Origin: an uncultured Acidobacteriota bacterium
Lineage (GTDB): Bacteria > Acidobacteriota > Thermoanaerobaculia > Thermoanaerobaculales > Sulfomarinibacteraceae
Direction: 5' to 3'
Assembly (NCBI GenBank): GCA_963704125.1
Contig: CAVPHA010000021.1
Location: 514,857 to 578,856 of the forward strand
DNA: 64,000 nt
The position numbers and the translations under genes are program-made. Positions 16,943 through 60,218 of the stretch are shown in pieces (positions within the stretch are counted from its first letter, which is position 1; the number at the start of each line of letters is the position of its first letter). The notes beneath the pieces were generated by a model that was not told where the DNA came from, did no database searches, and saw only the letters and a list, made by a program, of their open reading frames with translations.

Positions 16943-17647
16943 CGGCCGACCTCCCGGGAGCCGGAGGCTCGCGCGATCGCCGCATAGACCTGGCGATACG
17001 GATCACCGGCGAGACCCTGGAGGTCGCGCTCGATGGTGCCGGTTTCGCCACGCGCGAGGGAACCGGTCATCGCCGCGCGGCCGTGGGCCAGGGTGTTGGC
17101 GGCGGTTTGTTCGAGAAATGGCCTGAGCATCTCCCGGGGAAGACCGAGCCGCATTTCGAAATCGTCCATCGCCTTGAGCCACAGGAGGGTGGTGAAGTTG
17201 CCGGCGAGGACGCAGAGCGCGTGGTAGAGGGGTTTGAGCTCGGGGTCGATGGTCCAGGACGGGTTGTGCAAGACCGGGGAAGATCTCCTGGAATCCCAGG
17301 CTCCCGGTCTCTGCGACGAACGGGATGGATCGATAGGTCCCGAGATCGTAGGTTTCGGGACCAAAGGTCATCAGGGGGTGGAGGCCGGACGCGCCGGCGA
17401 TGGTCAGGCTGCCCGAGAAATGGACCAACGGATGGTCTCGGAGCTCGGGGTTGTCGGCAATGAAGGGCGCGAGCGCATCATCGCTGATGGCGAGCAGGAC
17501 GATCTCCGCCTCGCCGAGGACCGCGCCGGGTGGGTCAGCCAATCCGCGATGCCAAGGGATGACGCGCTGGCCTTCGAGCTCGAGATAGCGAGCCATGTGG
17601 GTGGCCGTACGCCCGCGGCCGACCAGCCCATAGGTGGGAGCGTCCAT
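16939..17647 (-). CDS. Rossmann + DUF2520 protein, candidate PanG-type ketopantoate reductase (frameshift near 17280)
   Basis: N-terminal 'YGLVGRGRTATHMARYL' dinucleotide fold (ORF 17003..17647). A DUF2520-like C-terminus lies in ORF 16939..17364. It is the first gene of the pan operon. Confidence 0.55.
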
Positions 17648-17770: not shown

Positions 17771-17862
17771 CATGGCAGCCCGTGGCGGCGTCCGTGGCAG
17801 CGTCCGTGGCGGCGGCCTCGGTCACTGTTCAGGCAACGCGCCGTCGGGATCGGGATCGGGTC
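17771..17862. repeat. direct repeat H1 (12-mer 'ccgtggcNgcgN' units plus a unique tail)
   Basis: Aligns with 18528..18626 with 5 substitutions plus one fewer 12-mer unit. The two copies bracket the 4HB cassette. Confidence 0.85.
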
Positions 17863-18527
17863 CGGACTCGACCCAACAGCGGATTGAGGAATCGAGAGGT
17901 CGGCCGGGGAGGATTCGGTTTTCTTGGATCGAAGACCTTGGTTCTCCTGATGATTCAGGAGATACCTGTGCGACTCCTGTATGAATTGTCTGGGAGGGTT
18001 TTGCACCCTCCCGATGAGGTTATCGGGGTGAGGAAGGCTAAGGGTGGAGGAGACGCCAGGTCATGGCACGAACATCATCGAAGAGTTGGAGCGTGGTTTC
18101 GCTGCGGGACGGGTCGATTGCACCAGCCCCCATGAGGAGACGAAGATGAATGTCAACTTCCTTTGCTGACCCATACGCGATGCGGTATAGGTGCATGCGG
18201 TCTCTTCCAAAACGACCGGCGCCTTCGGCGAGATTCGCCGGTACCGAGGAAGCGGATCGAATCACCTGATCGGCGATGGGCTTGAGCGGAGCGGGCACCC
18301 GCATCACGAGGGAGATGGCGATGCCGGCTGCGGTGGTGGCTTTCTCGAGGGCGTAGAATCGGGTCGTTTGCTGTTGCTCGTGCATGGTTACCTCCGGGTT
18401 GTTCATGTCCTTCCCCCAGCCGCTGGGATGGCTCGTGTCAAGGGTCGCCTTCGAGGCGACTTGTCTTGCCCTTGACTCGAGCCATCCCAGCGGCTACACG
18501 CGCTTTCATGAACAACCCGGGGGTGAC
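17863..18527 (-). mobile_element. candidate four-helix-bundle gene cassette, copy 1 (mobility is hypothetical)
   Basis: Bounded by direct repeats H1/H2. Its internal modules (3' hairpins, gene, upstream palindrome) are shared with 59179..59798. Confidence 0.35.
18038..18406 (-). CDS. four-helix-bundle protein (TIGR02436 / 23S rRNA intervening-sequence protein family, Avd-like)
   Basis: 'QVIRSASSVPANLAEGAGRFGRDRMHLYRIAYGSAKEVDIHLRLL' is the family signature. SD 'gggggaagga' precedes the ATG. Confidence 0.85.
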   Translation of the reverse strand: MNNPEVTMHEQQQTTRFYALEKATTAAGIAISLVMRVPAPLKPIADQVIRSASSVPANLAEGAGRFGRDRMHLYRIAYGSAKEVDIHLRLLMGAGAIDPSRSETTLQLFDDVRAMTWRLLHP

Positions 18528-18530
18528 CAT
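18384..18530. promoter_or_regulatory. ~147-bp imperfect palindrome covering the 5' end and upstream region of 4HB copy 1
   Basis: Arms match 22/24 ('atggttacctccgggttgttcatg'), 18/18 ('agccgctgggatggctcg') and 8/8 ('gtcaaggg'). The core is 'tcgcc-ttcga-ggcga'. The proximal arm contains TTGACA. Confidence 0.6.
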
Positions 18531-18626
18531 GCCGTGGCAGCGACCGTGGCAGCGACCGTGGCAGCGACCGTGGCGGCGGCCTCGGTCACTGTTCAGGCAG
18601 CGCGCCGTCGGGATCGGGATCAGGTC
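18528..18626. repeat. direct repeat H2 (partner of H1)
   Basis: See H1. Confidence 0.85.
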
Positions 18627-18740
18627 GAGGCCGCGGATTCGGAAACGGCCGCGGCTACGGACTCGGATACGGTCACGGATACGGATACGGATACGGATAC
18701 GGAAACGGCCACGGCCACGGCTACGGTTTCGGACGTCGCC
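18627..18740. repeat. (NNNCGG)n hexamer-periodic tract
   Basis: 'gcggattcggaaacggccgcggctacggactcggatacggtcacggatacggatacggatacggatacggaaacggccacggccacggctacggtttcgg': CGG every 6 nt for ~19 units. Confidence 0.9.
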
Positions 18741-18741
18741 C

Positions 18742-19704
18742 CTAGCCCGCGGCCACCATCTCCCACACCGCGAGCCACACCGGCAGGCTGACGACGCACA
18801 GGATGTAACTCAGCAGCATGACGGCGCCGACCTTCTGCTCGTCGCCGCCGTAGGCTCGTACCTGGAGGATCAGGCCGACGGCGGGGGCCGAAGCGGCCTG
18901 CAGCACCAGGAACCGGGCGAGCAGCGGGTTGGTGGTTCCGATTTCGGTGAAAGAGAGCACTGCGACCGTGAGGGCCGGGAGCAGACCGTACTTCACCGTC
19001 ATGGCGCGGGCGGCGTCCCAAAGGTGGGGCCGGAGGCGCAGGCTCATGCCGCCGAGCATCGCGCCGAGGACCACGGTGGCCACCGGAACCGCCCCTTCGC
19101 CCACCAGCTCGACCGTCTCCAGCACCGGCGTCGGAATCAACCGACTCACCCCGGTCAAGACCAGAGCGATGGAGGAGAGGCAGGCGACGAGGGGCGGATT
19201 CGCGAACCCCCGCCAATCGGCCTGCCGCGGAGCGCCGTTGGTGGCGAGGAACTTGCCGAGGCTCCAGAGAATCGGGTTGAAACCGACGATGAAAAGCGAA
19301 ACATAGAGCGCGAACTCGTCGAACTGCCCGGGATAGAGCGCGGCGCCGATCGGCAGGACGAGGTAGCCCGCATTCTGCATGCTCGCGACGGCGAGCATGC
19401 TGCGTTTCGCGGGGAGTTCGCGGAAGAAGACAAGGGTGGCCAGGGCGAGCCCAACCAGGGTCATGGCGATGCTTGCCAACGGCAGGGTCCACCACAACGG
19501 AAACTCGGCCGGCGAGAGATTGGTCAGGATCTTGTCGAGGATCAAACAGGGGAGGAAGAGGACGATGGTCGCCTTGGTCAGGGCGGTCACCATGGCGTCC
19601 GTGAGGACCTTCCGCCGCACGAGGAAACCCGCCAGAAAGACCACCAGGAAGATCTTGAGAGTCGCGAGCAAGGTGGCTACGGCGGTGGTGGTGAAGGAGT
19701 CCAT
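18742..19704 (-). CDS. AEC-family (auxin efflux carrier-like) membrane transporter
   Basis: Intact 320 aa ORF, ~10 TM, two-repeat layout typical of PF03547. Confidence 0.75.
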   Translation of the reverse strand: MDSFTTTAVATLLATLKIFLVVFLAGFLVRRKVLTDAMVTALTKATIVLFLPCLILDKILTNLSPAEFPLWWTLPLASIAMTLVGLALATLVFFRELPAKRSMLAVASMQNAGYLVLPIGAALYPGQFDEFALYVSLFIVGFNPILWSLGKFLATNGAPRQADWRGFANPPLVACLSSIALVLTGVSRLIPTPVLETVELVGEGAVPVATVVLGAMLGGMSLRLRPHLWDAARAMTVKYGLLPALTVAVLSFTEIGTTNPLLARFLVLQAASAPAVGLILQVRAYGGDEQKVGAVMLLSYILCVVSLPVWLAVWEMVAAG

Positions 19705-19860
19705 GATGAACGGGGGTTATTGTAGCCCGATCGATTCTCCAAGATACCTGAACCCCGGCGCTGACAGGAGGTTGGCGACAGGACGCTTGGGTTGTGGTAA
19801 ACTGTATTGAAATCAGAAACTTATCGAATTTTTGGTACTGCTGTTCTGAGAAGGAGGAGT

Positions 19861-21494: not shown

Positions 21495-21570
21495 TGGTGG
21501 AGCCGAAGGGGATCGAACCCTCGACTTCAGCATTGCGAACGCTGCGCTCTCCCAACTGAGCTACGGCCCC
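21495..21570 (-). tRNA. tRNA-Ala (anticodon CGC), CCA encoded
   Basis: The reverse complement folds as a cloverleaf: acceptor GGGGCCG/CGGCUCC with the G3:U70 Ala identity pair, D-arm GCUC/GAGC, anticodon loop UUCGCAA, T-arm GAGGGUUCGAUCCCC. Length 76 nt. Confidence 0.95.
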
Positions 21571-37771: not shown

Positions 37772-37810
37772 TCATCATATCAAGAACGGATTCGAGAATC
37801 GAATCCGTCA

Positions 37811-37965
37811 ATTATGAATTTTGAATTATGAATTTTGAATTACATCACACCATCACACCATCGCAACGTCGCAACGTCGCAACGCCGCACCTGCACACAG
37901 ACGCAGACGCTATCGGGGCTTATGCGATGAAAATTAAGAATTGAGAATTCAAAATCGAGAATTTC
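37811..37965. repeat. AT-rich heptamer-built palindrome enclosing 8-mer tandem repeats
   Basis: Left arm 'attatgaattttgaattatgaattttgaatt'. Centre '(atcacacc)2 atcgcaac (gtcgcaac)2 gccgcacc'. Right arm 'aattaagaattgagaattcaaaatcgagaatt'. Confidence 0.85.
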
Positions 37966-40213: not shown

Positions 40214-40240
40214 TCATACTCTCCCGTCCTGGCCGCGTCC

Positions 40241-40270
40241 GCGGCTGCGGTCTCGGTCTCGGTTACGGGA
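40241..40270. repeat. short (NNNCGG)n tract 5' of R1
   Basis: 'gcggctgcggtctcggtctcggttacggg'. Confidence 0.7.
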
Positions 40271-40277
40271 CCCGCAG

Positions 40278-40546
40278 CACCGGCCTTCCGGGACGCTGTG
40301 ACGCGATGGCGTCCCAGCGCCCCAGCGTCGCACCATCGGCGTGGTCGCTCCTGGGATGATTGGGGGGCTGCGACCACGCCGATGGTACGCCGGCGGCCTC
40401 CCTCTGAGCCGGGAGAGCAGACCGCATCGCGCCTCCCGGGGGAGCCCGGTATGACATTGTGCGGGGCGTGACGCGGTGCCGGGAGGTCGATCGGGCACAA
40501 TGTCATACCCCGACATCCCGAGGAGGGCGGATCCTGCGTGCCCGGT
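40278..40546. repeat. R element copy 1 (solo): ~270-nt hairpin-rich repeat, candidate structured RNA or DNA element
   Basis: Helix A 40333..40347/40371..40385 (15-16 bp perfect). Helix B 40448..40462/40495..40509 (15 bp perfect). Homologous to 43859.., 44713.., 58904.. and 59799... Confidence 0.85.
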
Positions 40547-41331: not shown

Positions 41332-42261
41332 ATGACAGATCATGTGATCACGTTGGCCTTGGGCGGTGGGGCGGCCAAGGGACTGGCCCACATCGGTGTC
41401 CTCAAGGGCCTCGAGGAGGACGGTTTCGAGGTCGCGGCCATCGCCGGGACATCCATGGGTTCCATCATCGGCGCGATGGCGGCTCAAGGCCTGAGCGCAC
41501 GTGAAATGGAGGGCCTCTTCCGAGCCATCGATTGGGTTCGACTCGGCCGGATCATGGTGACATCGGTGAGCGGCGCCGCCTTCCATGACATGTTGCGTGA
41601 GAGCTTTGGCGGGATCCTCATCGAAGACCTGGGGATCGCGTTCGCGGCGGTCTGCGCCGATCTCGACACCGGCGAGATGGTCGTCCTCGATGCCGGTGAT
41701 CTCGCCGAGGCGGTCTGCGCCTCGTCTTCGATTCCCGGCATCCTGCCGTCACGCCAGCTCGACGGACGTCGGCTGGTGGACGGAGCGGTGGTCGAACCTG
41801 TTCCGGTGACCGCTGCCTCCGCCATGGCGGTGGGCACGGTGCTCGCCGTCAACGTGGTTCGTCCGCCCACCCGCCAGGAACAGAGCGGGGCCATCATGAC
41901 CACCATGCCGATTTCGGTCGAGTGGCCGTCGGCCTTTCGTCGGGTCGAAGCCTGGCTTCGTCGTCAGCGCACCGAAGAGGTCGAGGGGGAGATCAGCGCG
42001 CGGGTGTCGCGCTGGGAGACGGTCTTCCGTTCCTTCCACATCATGCAGCACCGCCTCGCCACGTGCAGTCAGATCGATGTGCCCATGATCGAGCCGCAGG
42101 TCGGCCGGTTCGGCTGGTTCGATTTTCACCGGGTCGACGAGATCATCGCCGCCGGTTACGACGCGTACCGCGAGTGGGCGGACGACATCATCAATTCTGA
42201 ATTCTTAATTTTGAATTCTAAATTTCATCGCACCATCGCAACGGGCGCCTTGCGACGGTAA
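41332..42261 (+). CDS. patatin-like phospholipase
   Basis: Oxyanion 'GGGAAKG', nucleophile 'GTSMGS' and catalytic 'DGA'. The last ~20 codons run into the AT-rich palindrome. Confidence 0.85.
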   Translation: MTDHVITLALGGGAAKGLAHIGVLKGLEEDGFEVAAIAGTSMGSIIGAMAAQGLSAREMEGLFRAIDWVRLGRIMVTSVSGAAFHDMLRESFGGILIEDLGIAFAAVCADLDTGEMVVLDAGDLAEAVCASSSIPGILPSRQLDGRRLVDGAVVEPVPVTAASAMAVGTVLAVNVVRPPTRQEQSGAIMTTMPISVEWPSAFRRVEAWLRRQRTEEVEGEISARVSRWETVFRSFHIMQHRLATCSQIDVPMIEPQVGRFGWFDFHRVDEIIAAGYDAYREWADDIINSEFLILNSKFHRTIATGALRR

Positions 42262-42292
42262 TTAAGAATTAAGAATTAAAAATTGAGAATTC
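42192..42292. repeat. AT-rich heptamer-built palindrome between convergent genes
   Basis: Left arm 'tcaattctgaattcttaattttgaattctaaattt'. Centre 'catcgcaccatcgcaacgggcgccttgcgacgg'. Right arm 'taattaagaattaagaattaaaaattgagaattc'. Confidence 0.85.
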
Positions 42293-43811: not shown

Positions 43812-43858
43812 CCGTGGAGTGTAGCGTACGCGCGGTGCGGGTCACCGGTTTCTCGCAA

Positions 43859-44085
43859 CACCGGCCTTCTGGGCGCTGGGACGCTCTGGCGCAGCGCCCC
43901 AGCGTCGCCCCATCGGCGTGGTCGCTCGGGTGGTGGATTTGAGGGGCTGCGACCACGCCGATGGGACGCCGGCGGCTCCTTCGTTGGGAGAGCCAGGCGA
44001 GGCGCGTCCGGAGCCCGGACGCCAGGCGCAGCTGTCGCGTTGCCGGTGGGTGGACTGGCACCGGCCCGGCACCCGAGGGAGGTCC
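43859..44085. repeat. R element copy 2 (divergent; long helix B lost)
   Basis: Shares 'caccggccttctggg...ccccagcgtcgccccatcggcgtggtcg...cgaccacgccgatggg acgccggcgg' with the other copies. Confidence 0.7.
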
Positions 44086-44112
44086 TTTCCCGCGTGACCT
44101 CGAGGATTGATT

Positions 44113-44479
44113 CGGATGCAGCAGCCGCCAGGTCATCGCGCGGACGTCGTCGAAGAGTTGGATTGCGGTTGTGGCCCGTGTGGCATCGACGGCGTTTGCT
44201 TCAGCGAGGAGACGCAGGTGGGTGTCGACCTCTTTCGCTGAGCCGTAGGCGATGCGCCAGTGGTGCATGCGGTGGCGGCCTGATCGGCCGTGACCTTCGG
44301 AGAGATTGGCGGGCACCGACGAAGCGGAACGAATCACCTGATCGGCGAGACTCTTCAGAGGAGCCGGCACCCGTAAGACGAGAGCGATTGCGCATGCCGG
44401 CGGCTTCGAGAGCTTTGTGGTGGGCGATGAGGCCGGTGGATGGTAGGGCGTTGCGCATGATCACCTCCTGGTTGTTCAT
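44113..44479 (-). pseudogene. four-helix-bundle protein, copy 2 (one frameshift near 44395; stop codon missing, reads through R2)
   Basis: 'MNNQEVIM...' then '...PAPLKSLADQVIRSASSVPANLSEGHGRSGRHRMHHWRIAYGSAKEVDTHLRLL...AMTWRLLHP' with no stop until 43804. Confidence 0.6.
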
Positions 44480-44482
44480 GCC

Positions 44483-44570
44483 CCCTCCACCAGCCGCTGA
44501 AATGGCCGAGGTCAAGGGTCGCCGTCGAGGGCGATGCATTCGCTCTTGACCCTTGACATCGGCCACGTCT
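44483..44570. promoter_or_regulatory. palindrome upstream of 4HB copy 2
   Basis: 'agccgctgaaatggccgaggtcaaggg-tcgccgtcgagggcga-...-ccttgacatcggcca': same design as at 18418.. and 59740... Confidence 0.5.
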
Positions 44571-44712
44571 CTAGAGCGGCAGGACGTGCGTGAACATCGG
44601 GTCAGGAGACCACACCGGACGCTGACCGCGGCCCGCTGACGCTGTCGCCTGCGCAGTTGTCTGCCGCAGTCCCGGACGCTGTCCCGGAGACTGCCCCTGC
44701 GGTTTCCCGCAT

Positions 44713-44974
44713 CACCGGCCTTCTGGGACGATGGAACGCGGTGGCTTCCCATCGCCCCAGCGTCGCCCGAGCAGCGTGGTCGTTTAGGTGGAGAATTTGA
44801 GGGCTTCGACCACGCTGCTCGGGCGCCGGCGGCCTGCCTCTGAGCCGGGAGAAAAGACCGCATCGTGCCTCCCGGGGGAGCCCGGTATGACATTGTGCGG
44901 GAGGCACCGCGGTGCCGGGAGGTCGATGGGGCACAATGTCAAACCCACGCCCGAGGGAGGCTCCAGTCCCTCGG
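44713..44974. repeat. R element copy 3
   Basis: Helix A 44766..44782/44807..44823 (17 bp perfect, three compensated pairs versus R1). Helix B 'ggtatgacattgtgc/gcacaatgtcaaacc'. Confidence 0.85.
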
Positions 44975-44980
44975 ACCCGG

Positions 44981-45080
44981 AGCGGCCTCGGTTTCGGTTG
45001 CCGGATGCTGATGCTGCCGCTGTCCCGGACGCTGTCCCGGACGCTGCCGCTGCCGCTGTCGCTGTCGCGGCGGTGCCGCT
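44981..45080. repeat. 6-/12-mer periodic tract 3' of R3
   Basis: '...cggtttcggttgccggatgctgatgctgccgct(gtcccggacgct)2gccgctgccgctgtcgctgtcgcggcgg'. Confidence 0.8.
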
Positions 45081-45226
45081 GAACATCCTCATGACTGTAA
45101 AGGCGAAGATCCGCAGGGTCGCTACGCGGAATCTCAACGGATTGGTCGCGGGCGTAAACGACCCGCCTACAGCTCTGAATCACCCAGCGTCATCCTGCAC
45201 GGTTGTGCCGGGCGCTGTCCCGGCCG

Positions 45227-55322: not shown

Positions 55323-55351
55323 CAAGGACCGGCTATGTCGGGACGTTGCCG

Positions 55352-55486
55352 TGAAGAGTGAGGGTGAAGAGTGAAGAGTGAAGAGTGAAGAGTGAAGAGT
55401 TAAGGGTGAGCTTAGGGTGACGGGTGAGACACACTCTCTGCCTAACTCCTAACTCCTAACTCTCTAACCCTTCACTCTTTACTCGT
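55352..55486. repeat. long imperfect palindrome built from tandem heptamers
   Basis: Left arm '(gtgaaga/gtgaggg)n ...ttaagggtgagcttagggtgacgggtgag'. Turn 'acacac'. Right arm 'tctctgcctaactcctaactcctaactctctaacccttcactctttactc'. Confidence 0.85.
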
Positions 55487-58513: not shown

Positions 58514-58560
58514 GGGGGCCGAGCGCCGCCCGGTGAACCGCGAGGGGCAAGGACTCAAGG

Positions 58561-58630
58561 ACATCACACCATCGCAGCGTCGCAAACGCGAAGGCGCAAA
58601 GACGCAAAGCGGTCGCGAAGGCATCGCGGT
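58561..58630. repeat. 8-mer tandem repeats of the 'ATCACACC / GTCGCAAA / CGCAAAGA' family
   Basis: 'acatcacaccatcgcagcgtcgcaaacgcgaaggcgcaaagacgcaaagcggtcgcgaaggcatcgcgg'. Related strings occur at 37844.., 42227.. and 47403... Confidence 0.75.
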
Positions 58631-58815
58631 TGAGAGTGGGCGAGGTGCAGATTGATGGTGCTGGGAGTGGTTTGGCGGCCAGGTTCTCAGGACTGTAGGC
58701 GGGGCCTTCAGGCCCCGCGACCCTCCCGCTGACGTTCGGTGTGGCGATTCGGCGGCTCTTCGCTTCGAGGGTCGTGACGATGTTCGGGTCGGCGGGGCGG
58801 TTGACGGCGTGGGTT

Positions 58816-58890
58816 GCGGATTCGGCCTCGGCCTCGGTCACGGCTACGGACGCGGACTTCGGTCTCGGCCTCGGTTACGGTTTCGGTTCT
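58816..58890. repeat. (NNNCGG)n tract 5' of R4
   Basis: 'gcggattcggcctcggcctcggtcacggctacggacgcggacttcggtctcggcctcggttacggtttcggtt'. Confidence 0.9.
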
Positions 58891-58903
58891 TGATTCTCTC
58901 GTC

Positions 58904-59178
58904 TCCGGCCTTCTGGGGCGCTTGGACGCCCTGGCGTCCAAGCGCCCCAGCGTCGCACCATCGGCGTGGTCGTGCATGGGTGGATTGGAGGGCGGCGACC
59001 ACGCCGATGGCGCGCCGGCGGCCTACCTCTGCGCCGGAACAGAAGACCGCATCGCGCTTCCCGGGGAGTGCCCGGCACGCAATTGTGCGCGGCGTGCCGC
59101 GGTGCCGGATGGTTGATGGGGCACAATTACGTGCACGTCCCAATGAACGCGGATTCCGCGTGCCCTGGTCGGCATCGG
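58904..59178. repeat. R element copy 4
   Basis: First hairpin 'tggggcgcttggacgc/gcgtccaagcgcccca'. Helix A 'accatcggcgtggtcg/cgaccacgccgatgg'. Helix B 59075..59088/59121..59134. Positions 58946..59178 are duplicated at 59799..60139. Confidence 0.9.
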
Positions 59179-59798
59179 TCCGGAAATGGAGGCGGAGTGA
59201 TCCCAACTGGGAATTGAGGAATCGAGAAGTCAGCCGACAACCCACGGATTTCGTTGGATCGAAGACGTGACCCTCCTGATGACTCAGGAGATACCTGTGC
59301 ATTTCCGGTATGGGTTGTAGGGGAGGGTTTACACCCTCCCGATGCGATCCTAACCATGGAGAAGCCGCCAGGTCATGGCGCGGACGTCGTCGAAGAGCTG
59401 GAGCGAGGTATCGGTACGCGGAGCGTCGATTGCACCTGCGCCGACGAGGAGTCGCAGGTGGGTGTCGACCTCCTTGGCCGAACCGTAGGCGATGCGGCAA
59501 TGGTGAATGCGGTCTCTTCCTGACCGTCCAGCACCTTCGGCGATATTGGCAGGAACCGATGAGGCGGAGCGAATCACCTGATCTGCAATGGGTTTGAGTG
59601 GTGCTGGAACCCGCATGACGAGGGAGATCGCGATGCCGGCTGCGGTGGTCGCTTTCTCAAGGGCGTCGAATCGGGTCAGTTGCTGTTCGTCGTGCATGGT
59701 CACCTCCGGGTTGTTCATGCACTCCCAACCAGCCGCTGAGATGACCCATGTCAAGGGTCGCCTCCGAGGCGATTCGTCATGCCCTTGACATGGGTCAT
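59179..59798 (-). mobile_element. candidate four-helix-bundle gene cassette, copy 3 (mobility is hypothetical)
   Basis: Lies exactly between the duplicated R segments. Shares 'attgaggaatcgaga...', hairpin 'tctcctga..tcaggaga', hairpin 'gggagggtttacaccctccc', the gene and the upstream palindrome with copy 1. Confidence 0.35.
59350..59718 (-). CDS. four-helix-bundle protein (TIGR02436 / 23S-IVS protein family, Avd-like), copy 3
   Basis: 'MNNPEVTMHDEQQ...QVIRSASSVPANIAEGAGRSGRDRIHHCRIAYGSAKEVDTHLRLL...AMTWRLLHG'. SD 'gggag'. Very similar by eye to copy 1. Confidence 0.85.
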   Translation of the reverse strand: MNNPEVTMHDEQQLTRFDALEKATTAAGIAISLVMRVPAPLKPIADQVIRSASSVPANIAEGAGRSGRDRIHHCRIAYGSAKEVDTHLRLLVGAGAIDAPRTDTSLQLFDDVRAMTWRLLHG

Positions 59799-59799
59799 C
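59740..59799. promoter_or_regulatory. palindrome upstream of 4HB copy 3
   Basis: 'gatgacccatgtcaaggg-tcgcctccgaggcga-ttcgtcatg-cccttgacatgggtcatc': 18-bp perfect arms. TTGACA lies in the gene-proximal arm. Confidence 0.6.
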
Positions 59800-60139
59800 C
59801 CAGCGTCGCACCATCGGCGTGGTCGTGCATGGGTGGTTGCTAGTGCGCCTTGCGCACCGCGACCCACCCTCGCCTGGCTGCGGTCAGAGCCGTCCTCGCT
59901 TCGCGACGACGGCCTGACTCGCTCGCCAGCCGAGCGCGGGTTGGAAGGGCGGCGACCACGCCGATGGCGCGCCGGCGGCCTACCTCTGCGCCGGGAACAG
60001 AAGACCGCATCGCGCTTCCCGTGGAGTGCCCGGCAACGCAATTGTGCGCAGCGCGCAGCGGTGCCGGATGGCTGATGAGGCACAATTACGTGCCCACGTC
60101 CCAATGAACGCGGATTCCGCGTGCCCTGGTCGGGATCGG
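59799..60139. repeat. R element copy 5 (lacks the first hairpin; carries a ~104-bp insertion in the helix-A loop, 59837..59940)
   Basis: Aligns with 58946..59178 with about 9 substitutions and 4 small indels by eye, plus the insertion. Confidence 0.9.
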
Positions 60140-60218
60140 GCACGGATTCGGAGGAGGCGACGGCCACGGCCACGGATACGGAAACGGTCGCGGATTCGGA
60201 TACGGAAACGGCCCCGGT
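60140..60218. repeat. (NNNCGG)n tract 3' of R5
   Basis: 'cacggattcggaggaggcgacggccacggccacggatacggaaacggtcgcggattcggatacggaaacggccccgg'. Confidence 0.9.

Follow-up and report, generated by a model that had tools for sequence, protein, structure and literature searches.

Within a 64,000-nucleotide stretch of contig CAVPHA010000021.1 (positions 514,857 to 578,856), from an uncultured Acidobacteriota bacterium of the Sulfomarinibacteraceae, a small intergenic cassette at 17863-18532 encodes a four-helix-bundle (4HB) protein. Here, we describe a computational analysis of this cassette (cassette A) and of its relatives, both within the stretch, which we refer to as the window, and in other genomes. 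Cassette A is a copy of an expression module that occurs clade-wide in multiple copies and encodes an Avd-like four-helix-bundle protein of the PF05635 family; the parts of the module occur in a fixed order: a repeat tract, a two-helix palindrome of approximately 150 bp, the gene, and 3' hairpins. The palindrome is present in full in 73 of 80 related loci surveyed in Thermoanaerobaculia metagenome-assembled genomes (MAGs), so that it is not peculiar to cassette A; labels such as L001 and L002 denote these related loci in other genomes. The explanation that we favor overall, to which we assign a probability of about one half, is that cassette A is an expression module of a transposon family, that the palindrome serves as its cis-acting control element, and that the direct repeats flanking the cassette (H1 and H2) arose by recombination.

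The PF05635/TIGR02436 family is widespread and, outside the Avd protein of diversity-generating retroelements (DGRs), is an orphan family known mainly as the open reading frame (ORF) of 23S rRNA intervening sequences (IVSs). A literature search found no paper describing the elements reported here. What is new is that this gene is carried, as an invariable cargo, by bona fide elements that have terminal inverted repeats (TIRs) and 8-bp target duplications and reach dozens of copies per genome, and that it stands behind a large covarying palindrome that extends over its start site.

A four-helix-bundle gene behind a conserved palindrome

Cassette A and a second copy, cassette B, align by BLAST over a unit of approximately 630 nt (17863-18492 and 59193-59805; 79% identity, E = 3e-113). 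The common unit comprises the minus-strand ORF, two 3' hairpins, a 15-mer, attgaggaatcgaga, that is exact in both copies (17883-17897 and 59213-59227), and the palindrome GTCAAGGG...CCCTTGAC. The original prediction, made from the letters of the window, that both cassettes contain the same modules is therefore borne out with small coordinate corrections, at levels far above those due to chance, and the 'gatcgg(g)tccgga' strings that it placed at the left junctions are present at 17854-17866 and approximately 59174-59186. The palindrome core, GTCAAGGG..CCCTTGAC, occurs three times in the window (18437-18476, 59750-59789 and 44511-44557) against an expectation of 0.01, and the last of these lies in a third cassette, C, which the prediction had overlooked. 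The gene of cassette C starts at 44458 and belongs to another sub-lineage (start MRNA..., as in L020). Beyond the window, the 3' motif tctcgattcctcaat was found again only in L002.

The product of the cassette gene is a member of the PF05635/TIGR02436 family, which includes Avd and the 23S-IVS protein S23p. The copies in cassettes A and B score 52.7 and 60.2 bits against PF05635 (23S rRNA intervening-sequence protein; cut-off 33.8) and 52.7 and 63.4 bits against TIGR02436 (four helix bundle protein; cut-off 24). An AlphaFold2 (AF2) model, computed for the monomer only, has a pLDDT of 94 and forms an up-down four-helix bundle with helices at residues 2-27, 32-56, 60-86 and 92-113. The best matches of this model to the Protein Data Bank (PDB) in Foldseek are 2GSC (template-modeling (TM) score 0.83) and 2RLD (TM 0.84-0.86), followed by the DGR protein Avd (4DWL and 8UB7; TM about 0.76-0.8). 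The gene copies in cassettes A and B differ at 42 codons synonymously and at 17 non-synonymously, which indicates that the protein is under purifying selection. Its closest genomic relatives share 66-85% amino-acid identity and are found in Acidobacteriota MAGs of the Thermoanaerobaculia (Thermoanaerobaculales, Sulfomarinibacteraceae, 'Holophagae'). At least 431 genomic matches were confirmed, with 9-15 or more copies in single MAGs, and a protein database search returned 3758 clusters at E <= 1e-5. The gene matched none of the PADLOC defence models, a scan of viral contigs found no relative, and a metagenome scan with the exact flank of the A locus gave 0 matches.

These structural matches raise the question of whether the protein is the Avd accessory subunit of a DGR, with which it shares the four-helix-bundle fold and a Pfam family at the clan level (bAvd; 4DWL, 8UB7; PMC10053308). 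Sequence identity to DGR Avd is only 12%, however, and the gene occurs as dozens of stand-alone copies per genome. The neighboring genes specify PanB, ArgRS and a transporter but no reverse transcriptase, and self-BLAST of the window reveals no template/variable repeat pair. For these last two reasons we do not regard the cassette as part of a DGR, an assignment that we consider extremely improbable.

The palindrome of cassette A spans 151 nt (18382-18532). Its outer arms (18382-18407 and 18507-18532) are 92% complementary and its inner arms (18418-18444 and 18469-18495) 96% complementary. As a single strand it folds with a predicted energy of -115.5 kcal/mol (z = -12.2), and it folds equally well on both strands. 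In the family, the architecture consists of a distal outer arm, an unpaired spacer of 10-12 nt, a 27-nt inner arm, a loop of approximately 24 nt, the second inner arm, a purine-rich spacer, and the proximal outer arm; the core lies approximately 52 nt upstream of the start in 76 of the 80 loci. Homology with L001-L020 begins exactly at the outer edge of the distal arm (18532-18534 in the window), and between diverged copies of subfamily 1 the common stretch extends only from the distal arm to the stop codon. Cassette B departs from this family pattern in that the place of its distal arm is taken by a copy of the X element, a dispersed repeat considered below.

The pairing of the palindrome has been maintained by compensatory change. 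From 74 aligned copies, RNAalifold predicts a structure of 38 pairs, with compensatory double changes at 24 of them. When the structure is held fixed, 97.1% of cells (one position pair in one copy) are paired, compared with 85.2% in shuffled alignments, and double changes are found at 22 of 36 pairs, a number reached by none of 500 shuffles. Sliding the pairing partner by 1-3 columns reduces the paired fraction to 26-51%. Both helices contribute to this signal: 98.5% of outer-helix cells are paired, with double changes at 7 pairs, and 11 of 17 inner-hairpin pairs have compensatory changes. The 2585 cells include 2495 Watson-Crick pairs, 16 G:T and 22 A:C, without tolerance of wobble pairs or strand bias, and the palindrome is thus constrained on both strands or at the level of DNA. 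Because the outer arms are complementary while the two 10-12-nt inter-helix spacers never are, L064 being the sole exception, the outer arm is under selection and is not the decaying remnant of an inverted duplication. Fold-back (snap-back) synthesis was rejected as the origin of the outer arm on the same observation of the spacers. The exception itself, L064:2473-3344, is a head-to-head inverted duplication of palindrome and gene with 424-nt arms that are 94% complementary; it retains the usual 24-nt center and forms an 872-bp palindrome, and the MAG that contains it is labelled Methylomirabilota. Rfam searches at gathering and E-value thresholds gave only generic hairpin (miRNA) matches for the palindrome and the X element.

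The original prediction had described a palindrome that reaches into the coding sequence and mirrors its first eight codons. The palindrome does cover the start of the gene, and the mirrored segment is real; this segment is the translation-initiation region, whichever start codon is used, and translation of the eight codons is ambiguous. The proximal outer arm, CATGAACAACCCGGAGGTAACCATG, contains a first ATG (ATG1) and a perfect GGAGGT located 5 nt before a second, in-frame ATG (ATG2). Both ATGs are nearly invariant in the 74 aligned copies. The start codon is ambiguous because the spacing favors ATG2, whereas an intact relative, L066, has ATG1 alone. In the distal arm the conserved part is an anti-Shine-Dalgarno stretch, CACCTCCGGGTYGTTC, and the mirrored ATG is missing in 20 loci.

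This last observation bears on the suggestion that the mirrored initiation region drives a divergent gene for an arginine-rich repeat peptide (MPWQRPWQR...RIRIRI). The distal arm does mirror a Shine-Dalgarno (SD) sequence and an ATG, and in the window and in approximately 30 loci an ORF runs from it into the adjoining tract, where CGG is retained every 6 nt while the other three bases vary. The ORF that had been predicted thus exists mechanically (18466-19725), but it is not conserved and continues antisense through a genuine transporter gene (Mem_trans, 18742-19704). Its 'product' differs wholly between loci with the local tract, which yields RS, PWQR, VP or GH repeats or nothing at all, and many tracts next to the palindrome have 13-nt periods. 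The divergent ORF is not a gene; a coding role for it is very improbable and largely refuted by the lack of conservation.

Mobile relatives and the repeats around the cassettes

The proposal that the cassette is mobile finds support outside the window, where relatives of the cassette are true transposable elements with target-site duplications. Seven copies in the MAG MFD03804.bin.1.132 share 95-98.5% identity across 670-800 nt, with sharply defined edges. These edges are 28-bp TIRs, GGYTCATCCGGRAWWNCGTGAGGTSGGG, both of which are present in 20 of the 80 loci at a distance of 810-857 bp, and a scan for exact matches to the ends found 60 further stretches, approximately 40 of them in MFD03804.bin.1.132. 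Among the 69 distinct TIR-bounded elements, the 8-bp flanks are identical in 18 and match at 7 of 8 positions in 20, compared with 1 and 2 in a shifted control; the consensus of the duplication is nAA(C/a)(G/t)TTn. The palindrome core lies inside 58 of the 69. From left to right, the interior of an element contains the left end, a CCG-hexamer tract, a 13-mer tract, the palindrome, the gene, an inverted tract, and the right end. From this order it follows that the tracts are subterminal parts of the element and that the palindrome, approximately 160 nt inside the left TIR, is internal and not the transposition end.

The sister-subfamily elements of 0.8-0.9 kb are mobile insertion cassettes (MICs), transposons that carry a passenger gene but are non-autonomous; they would depend on a transposase acting in trans, and it is through them that the family spreads. 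The 4HB gene is their only conserved ORF. Five recently amplified copies have lost the start codon and the reading frame, and transposition therefore does not require the gene in cis. Inspection of 60 TIR loci revealed no autonomous insertion sequence (IS) bounded by these ends, and the IS3-family element of L179 is apparently nested. Shorter TIR elements are internal deletions or have an unrelated interior. Thus, L177:423-1916 contains three internally deleted elements arranged head-to-tail 5 nt apart, and L171:792-1131 is a 340-bp miniature inverted-repeat transposable element (MITE) with the same TIRs around an unrelated hairpin, which indicates that the ends are common to more than one non-autonomous element. 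MICs and MITEs are non-autonomous, are bounded by TIRs, sometimes carry a passenger gene, and are mobilised in trans (PMC3129680). The sister-subfamily elements resemble them in their 28-bp TIRs, 8-bp duplications, lack of a transposase, single passenger ORF, high copy number per genome, and internal-deletion derivatives, as well as in sharing ends with a MITE of unrelated interior. They differ in that the passenger is always the same PF05635 gene, accompanied by an elaborate conserved palindrome and subterminal tracts, and cassettes A, B and C of the window differ further in having no detectable inverted repeats or short duplications. Terminal inverted repeats of this type are likewise missing from the loci of subfamily 1. 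The copies in the window are therefore best described as end-less members of the family that are embedded in a repeat island.

The 23S rRNA IVSs of Coxiella and Leptospira encode a protein of the same family (PMC4990558). The Coxiella IVS is 428 nt long, encodes a homologous S23p, and has a 28-bp inverted-repeat stem; an origin of IVSs as transposon remnants and a role of the ORF in mobility have long been suspected (PMC4990558). Like the sister-subfamily elements, IVSs are small (approximately 0.4-0.85 kb across the two types), selfish in appearance, and bounded by inverted repeats of approximately 28 bp. In contrast, cassette A is not located in rRNA, and its inverted repeats are confined to the upstream side of the ORF, unlike the 28-bp repeats of the sister subfamily, which bracket it. 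The sole Rfam match in the 64-kb window at the gathering threshold is a minus-strand tRNA gene (21498-21570). Integron cassettes offer a third comparison, being small single-gene units with an imperfect covarying palindrome that occur in arrays with repeated structured elements. Here, however, the palindrome is 5' and overlaps the start, there are no R''/R' cores (GTTRRRY/RYYYAAC) and no integrase among the neighboring genes, and relatives move by inverted-repeat ends with 8-bp duplications.

A more speculative proposal, to which we give low odds, is that the PF05635 protein acts on its own element, binding the CCG/CAGCG tracts, the palindrome or the X RNA in order to promote or control copying. 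If so, the Thermoanaerobaculia elements would be a free-living form of the 23S rRNA IVSs, and this would be the first function of the S23p/Avd-like family outside DGRs. The transposon-remnant view of IVSs has so far been hypothesis only (PMC4990558), and the elements described here make the idea testable: the identity of the transposase, binding of the protein to its own element, and insulation of expression by the palindrome can all now be addressed.

The X element is a repeat of approximately 280 nt with three or four long hairpins. In the window, copies are present on the plus strand at 40271-40546, at 43846-43979 and 44700-44946 (on either side of cassette C), and at 58902-59184 and 59799-60146 (a co-oriented pair flanking cassette B). 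The element also occurs in L001, L004-L010, L020, L037, L081, L084 and L168; it forms arrays with spacers of approximately 170 nt in L004-type loci and flanks the cassettes of L001, L007 and L168. All 38 copies found (15 loci) are co-oriented with the 4HB gene, and on the gene-sense strand G:U pairs outnumber A:C mismatches by 81 to 11 (32 copies, 54 predicted pairs). This bias and the constant co-orientation give X the appearance of a transcribed structured RNA, and it is probably a structured RNA on the evidence of these alignments; no Rfam family matches it.

The direct repeats H1 and H2, which the original prediction had placed around cassette A, are confirmed with corrected boundaries (Table 1) and are 92.4% identical over 92 nt by BLAST (E = 2e-30). 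Tandem Repeats Finder (TRF) detects 2.9 copies of a 12-mer at 17780-17814 and 3.9 copies at 18532-18578, so that H2 has one extra unit. In one model, which extends the duplication of the target site considered in the prediction, the cassette is mobile through its palindrome or hairpin and its insertion generates target duplications of 90-240 nt. In keeping with this model, both intact cassettes of the window are bracketed by different direct repeats, with the inner edges of the repeats falling at the cassette boundaries; H1 has a native-looking end; and L064 demonstrates that the center of the palindrome can seed a full inverted duplication with 424-nt arms. As a general signature of insertion, though, long flanking repeats do not hold up. 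Only 9 of 65 loci with sufficient flanking sequence have direct repeats on both sides, and these are dispersed X copies or simple tracts, the convincing cases being pairs of X elements and the H pair of the window. The 'repeat' around cassette B is a member of a multicopy family and not unique target DNA. Demonstrable transposition in the family, moreover, uses TIRs and yields duplications of 8 bp rather than 90-240 bp, with the palindrome internal to the element. Motifs of H2 also travel with the cassette: immediately next to the palindrome, L006 has the same 12-mer unit and L002 the tail motif CTGxCTGAACAGTGACCG, both being non-orthologous loci in other genomes, which suggests that H2 is cassette-borne and not target-derived. 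We therefore regard insertion with long target duplications as improbable, and apparent 'target duplications' of this kind in repeat-rich intergenic islands as an annotation trap.

The long flanking repeats are instead copies of modules that habitually adjoin the cassettes, either CCG-periodic tracts or the 280-nt X element. In approximately 60 of 70 loci, repeat tracts are found no more than about 50 nt from the distal arm, and their unit differs from locus to locus. For cassette A, we suggest with low confidence that H2 is the cassette's own upstream tract and H1 a second copy. H1 could have been left by unequal or homologous recombination in repeat arrays, through a tandem-unit intermediate or integration of a circle, rather than by the staggered cut of a transposase. 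Homology-driven integration or recombination among repeats, the second option offered by the original prediction, is a viable mechanism. Two other notions were discarded: a derivation of the 12-mer and 6-mer tract units from the outer-arm sequence was dropped as over-reading, and relics of TIRs suspected by eye in the 'tccgga' strings at the ends of the window cassettes were rejected, since nhmmer found nothing and the string of cassette B belongs to the X/tract unit.

Orthologous sites in related species agree with the view of a discrete repeated cassette at insertion-prone intergenic sites. At the B locus, between the ArgRS gene and the next gene, the intergenic distance is 47 nt in L088 and 165-279 nt, with only tracts or other short repeats, in L090, L114 and L091, compared with 1.7 kb in the window, where the -10 box of the downstream gene (TATGAT) marks the exact end of the block. 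At the A locus, between the transporter gene and the next gene, no 4HB gene is present in four relatives (L081, L082, L084 and L085). The site comprises 307 nt with inverted 12-mer-like tracts in L085 and 552 nt with a possible relic of the tract and the beginning of the distal arm in L082, while in L081 and L084 an extra gene occupies the site together with an X element and a (GGCAGC)n tract. The gene that starts at 17647 has a likely promoter on the minus strand (17770-17742; TTGTCA-17 nt-TACGCT). This promoter is conserved at the orthologous sites in L081, L084 and L085, and its -35 box is exactly where H1 ends.

Possible functions of the palindrome

The distal arm of the palindrome is complementary to the SD/start region, and the palindrome may be the cis-acting control element of the gene. 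A transcript that originates outside the cassette would fold back and hide the ribosome-binding site, whereas one that begins within the palindrome, past the distal arm, would be open to translation. Since the palindrome folds equally well on both strands, it could also block or insulate transcription from either side. A module that lands in either orientation near active genes would benefit from a fold on both strands that hides the ribosome-binding site in read-through transcripts, and the lack of wobble pairs would follow from selection acting on both strands.

Arrangements of this type have precedents among insertion sequences. IS10 is subject to fold-back inhibition. The left end of IS200 bears a bidirectional terminator hairpin that guards against impinging transcription, and a stem in its 5' untranslated region sequesters the SD sequence (PMC4513863). 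By analogy with these elements, the palindrome may insulate the gene or occlude its translation. The cassette shares with IS200 and IS10 an inverted repeat close to the edge of the element that pairs with the SD/start region of the element's only gene, complementarity that is here conserved by covariation, and a stable hairpin at this position can act on both strands. The cassette differs from these elements in that the protected gene is not a transposase gene, the structure is much larger (two helices, approximately -115 kcal/mol), and there is no wobble signature.

Several observations weigh against the explanation that we favor. A consensus scan detected no sigma-70-like promoter inside or upstream of the palindrome, and -10 boxes recognized by eye after TTGAC boxes on both strands were rejected, the T at -7 being missing. 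An RNA stem should tolerate G:U pairs, and these are not enriched in the palindrome, in contrast to the X element; selection on both strands would account for their absence, but the absence fits a DNA-level role equally well. The window copies have no TIR, as judged from searches of the 64 kb for GGYTCATCCGGAAT... with up to three mismatches, by regular expression, and with nhmmer (all E > 5). Nor do the window cassettes have an 8-bp duplication; no repeats flank them other than the H pair (92 nt) and the X pair. In TIR elements, the 5' and 3' tracts are mutually inverted, whereas H1 and H2 are direct repeats. Finally, the last ~25 nt of H1 align with a degenerate stretch of approximately two units at the cassette-less orthologous site of L085, which favors H1 as the native sequence and H2 as the copy and conflicts with the evidence from L002 and L006.

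Two other readings of the palindrome are serious rivals. In the first, which we judge unlikely although it is the stronger of the two, the palindrome is a symmetric operator in duplex DNA whose inverted half-sites are bound by a repressor in dimeric or oligomeric form; the repressor, perhaps the 4HB protein, would thereby autoregulate the gene, with 8-9 lineage-specific bp in the inner arms setting the specificity of each paralogue. Strictly Watson-Crick pairing without G:U bias is what the symmetry of duplex half-sites predicts, and the near-invariant GTCAAGGG/CCCTTGAC boxes are accompanied by a covarying variable block. Avd-type proteins bind nucleic acids, and 8UB7 and 4DWL are fold matches of the 4HB model. 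An operator would leave unexplained, however, the exact match in position between the outer half-site and the SD/start region. Homologues of Avd form pentamers rather than dimers (there are five chains in both 2GSC and 2RLD), an operator with 26-27-bp arms at a distance of 100 bp would be unusual, and the covariation among paralogues is inseparable from shared descent.

The second rival, which is appreciably less probable, views the palindrome as an RNase III-type processing site in long co-directional transcripts (X RNA, tract, 4HB mRNA, X RNA), by analogy with excision of the 4HB-encoding IVS from 23S rRNA. The palindrome comprises two near-perfect helices of 26-27 bp, the co-orientation of X copies with the gene is constant, and the G:U bias of X is RNA-like on that strand. 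Furthermore, RNase III cleaves the stems on either side of the homologous ORF in IVSs (PMC4990558). A cut in the outer helix would destroy the SD/start region, however, and cassette A has no X neighbor.

Other repeats and features of the window

The features of cassette A, the other two cassettes and the adjoining repeats are listed in Table 1. The genes around the cassettes are ordinary ones and encode the Mem_trans transporter, PanB, a PD40-repeat protein and, next to cassette B, ArgRS.

Table 1. Coordinates of the cassettes and associated repeats in the window
Feature	Position	Strand	Description
Proximal outer arm	18382..18407	minus	Translation-initiation region; ATG1 18406-18404, GGAGGT 18395-18390, ATG2 18385-18383
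Inner hairpin	18418..18495	minus	27-nt arms with near-invariant GTCAAGGG / CCCTTGAC; 24-nt loop with small hairpin TCGCC..GGCGA
Distal outer arm	18507..18532	minus	Inverted copy of the SD/start region (anti-initiation-region arm); left edge of family-wide homology
Four-helix-bundle protein gene	18038..18385	minus	115 aa from ATG2, 122 aa from ATG1 (18406); stop TAG 18040-18038
3' non-coding module common to A and B	17863..18037	minus	Hairpins 17992-18012 (terminator-like) and 17943-17962; tctcgattcctcaat (17883-17897; plus strand attgaggaatcgaga); fold -59.6 kcal/mol, z = -3.1; aligns with 59193-59352
H1	17773..17862		Downstream of the cassette; second copy of the tail and 2.9 units of the 12-mer, ending at the next gene's -35 box
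H2	18535..18626		55-nt tail and 3.9 units of the 12-mer CCGTGGCAGCGA; abuts the distal palindrome arm
CGG-periodic (period 6) tract	18610..18740		Directly past the transporter stop codon; upstream of the cassette in gene orientation; TRF 18634-18726, period 6, 15.5 copies
Cassette B	59193..59805	minus	Same gene, 3' module and inner hairpin; without distal outer arm
Cassette C	44100..44565 (about)	minus	Frameshifted pseudogene copy; inner hairpin kept

These genomes contain further undescribed classes of repeat in the RNA-like X element, the CGG-periodic tracts and the 7-8-mer arrays. Period-6 tracts are found in the window at 18610-18740, 58800-58890, 60140-60217, 40230-40270 and 44960-45081, as well as in many loci elsewhere, and there are related arrays of 12-, 13- and 18-mers. 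In the period-6 tracts, CGG (or CCG) recurs in every six-base unit and the remaining three bases are variable, a pattern of conserved trinucleotide and variable filler unlike that predicted for simple slippage followed by decay. The tracts fill intergenic regions, differ between species at orthologous sites, and end exactly at the promoter boxes of neighboring genes.

AT-rich arrays of 7-8-mers (AATTATG, AATTCTG/AATTAAG, GTGAAGA/CCTAACT) are present at 37810-37889, 42193-42291 and 55351-55468, where they flank very short GC-rich centers such as CATCGCACCATCGCAACGGGCGCCTTGCGACGG. Similar arrays surround the TIR elements of relatives, and such arrays may represent hotspots for insertion or footprints left by excision. 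Another repeat class, 8-9-mer arrays of the ATCGCA/TTGCGAT type (CGCAAAG, TTTGCGATG), is found at 58540-58660 and at L114:7190-7320, and downstream of the gene in L006 and L061; arrays of this type are common to orthologous intergenic regions.

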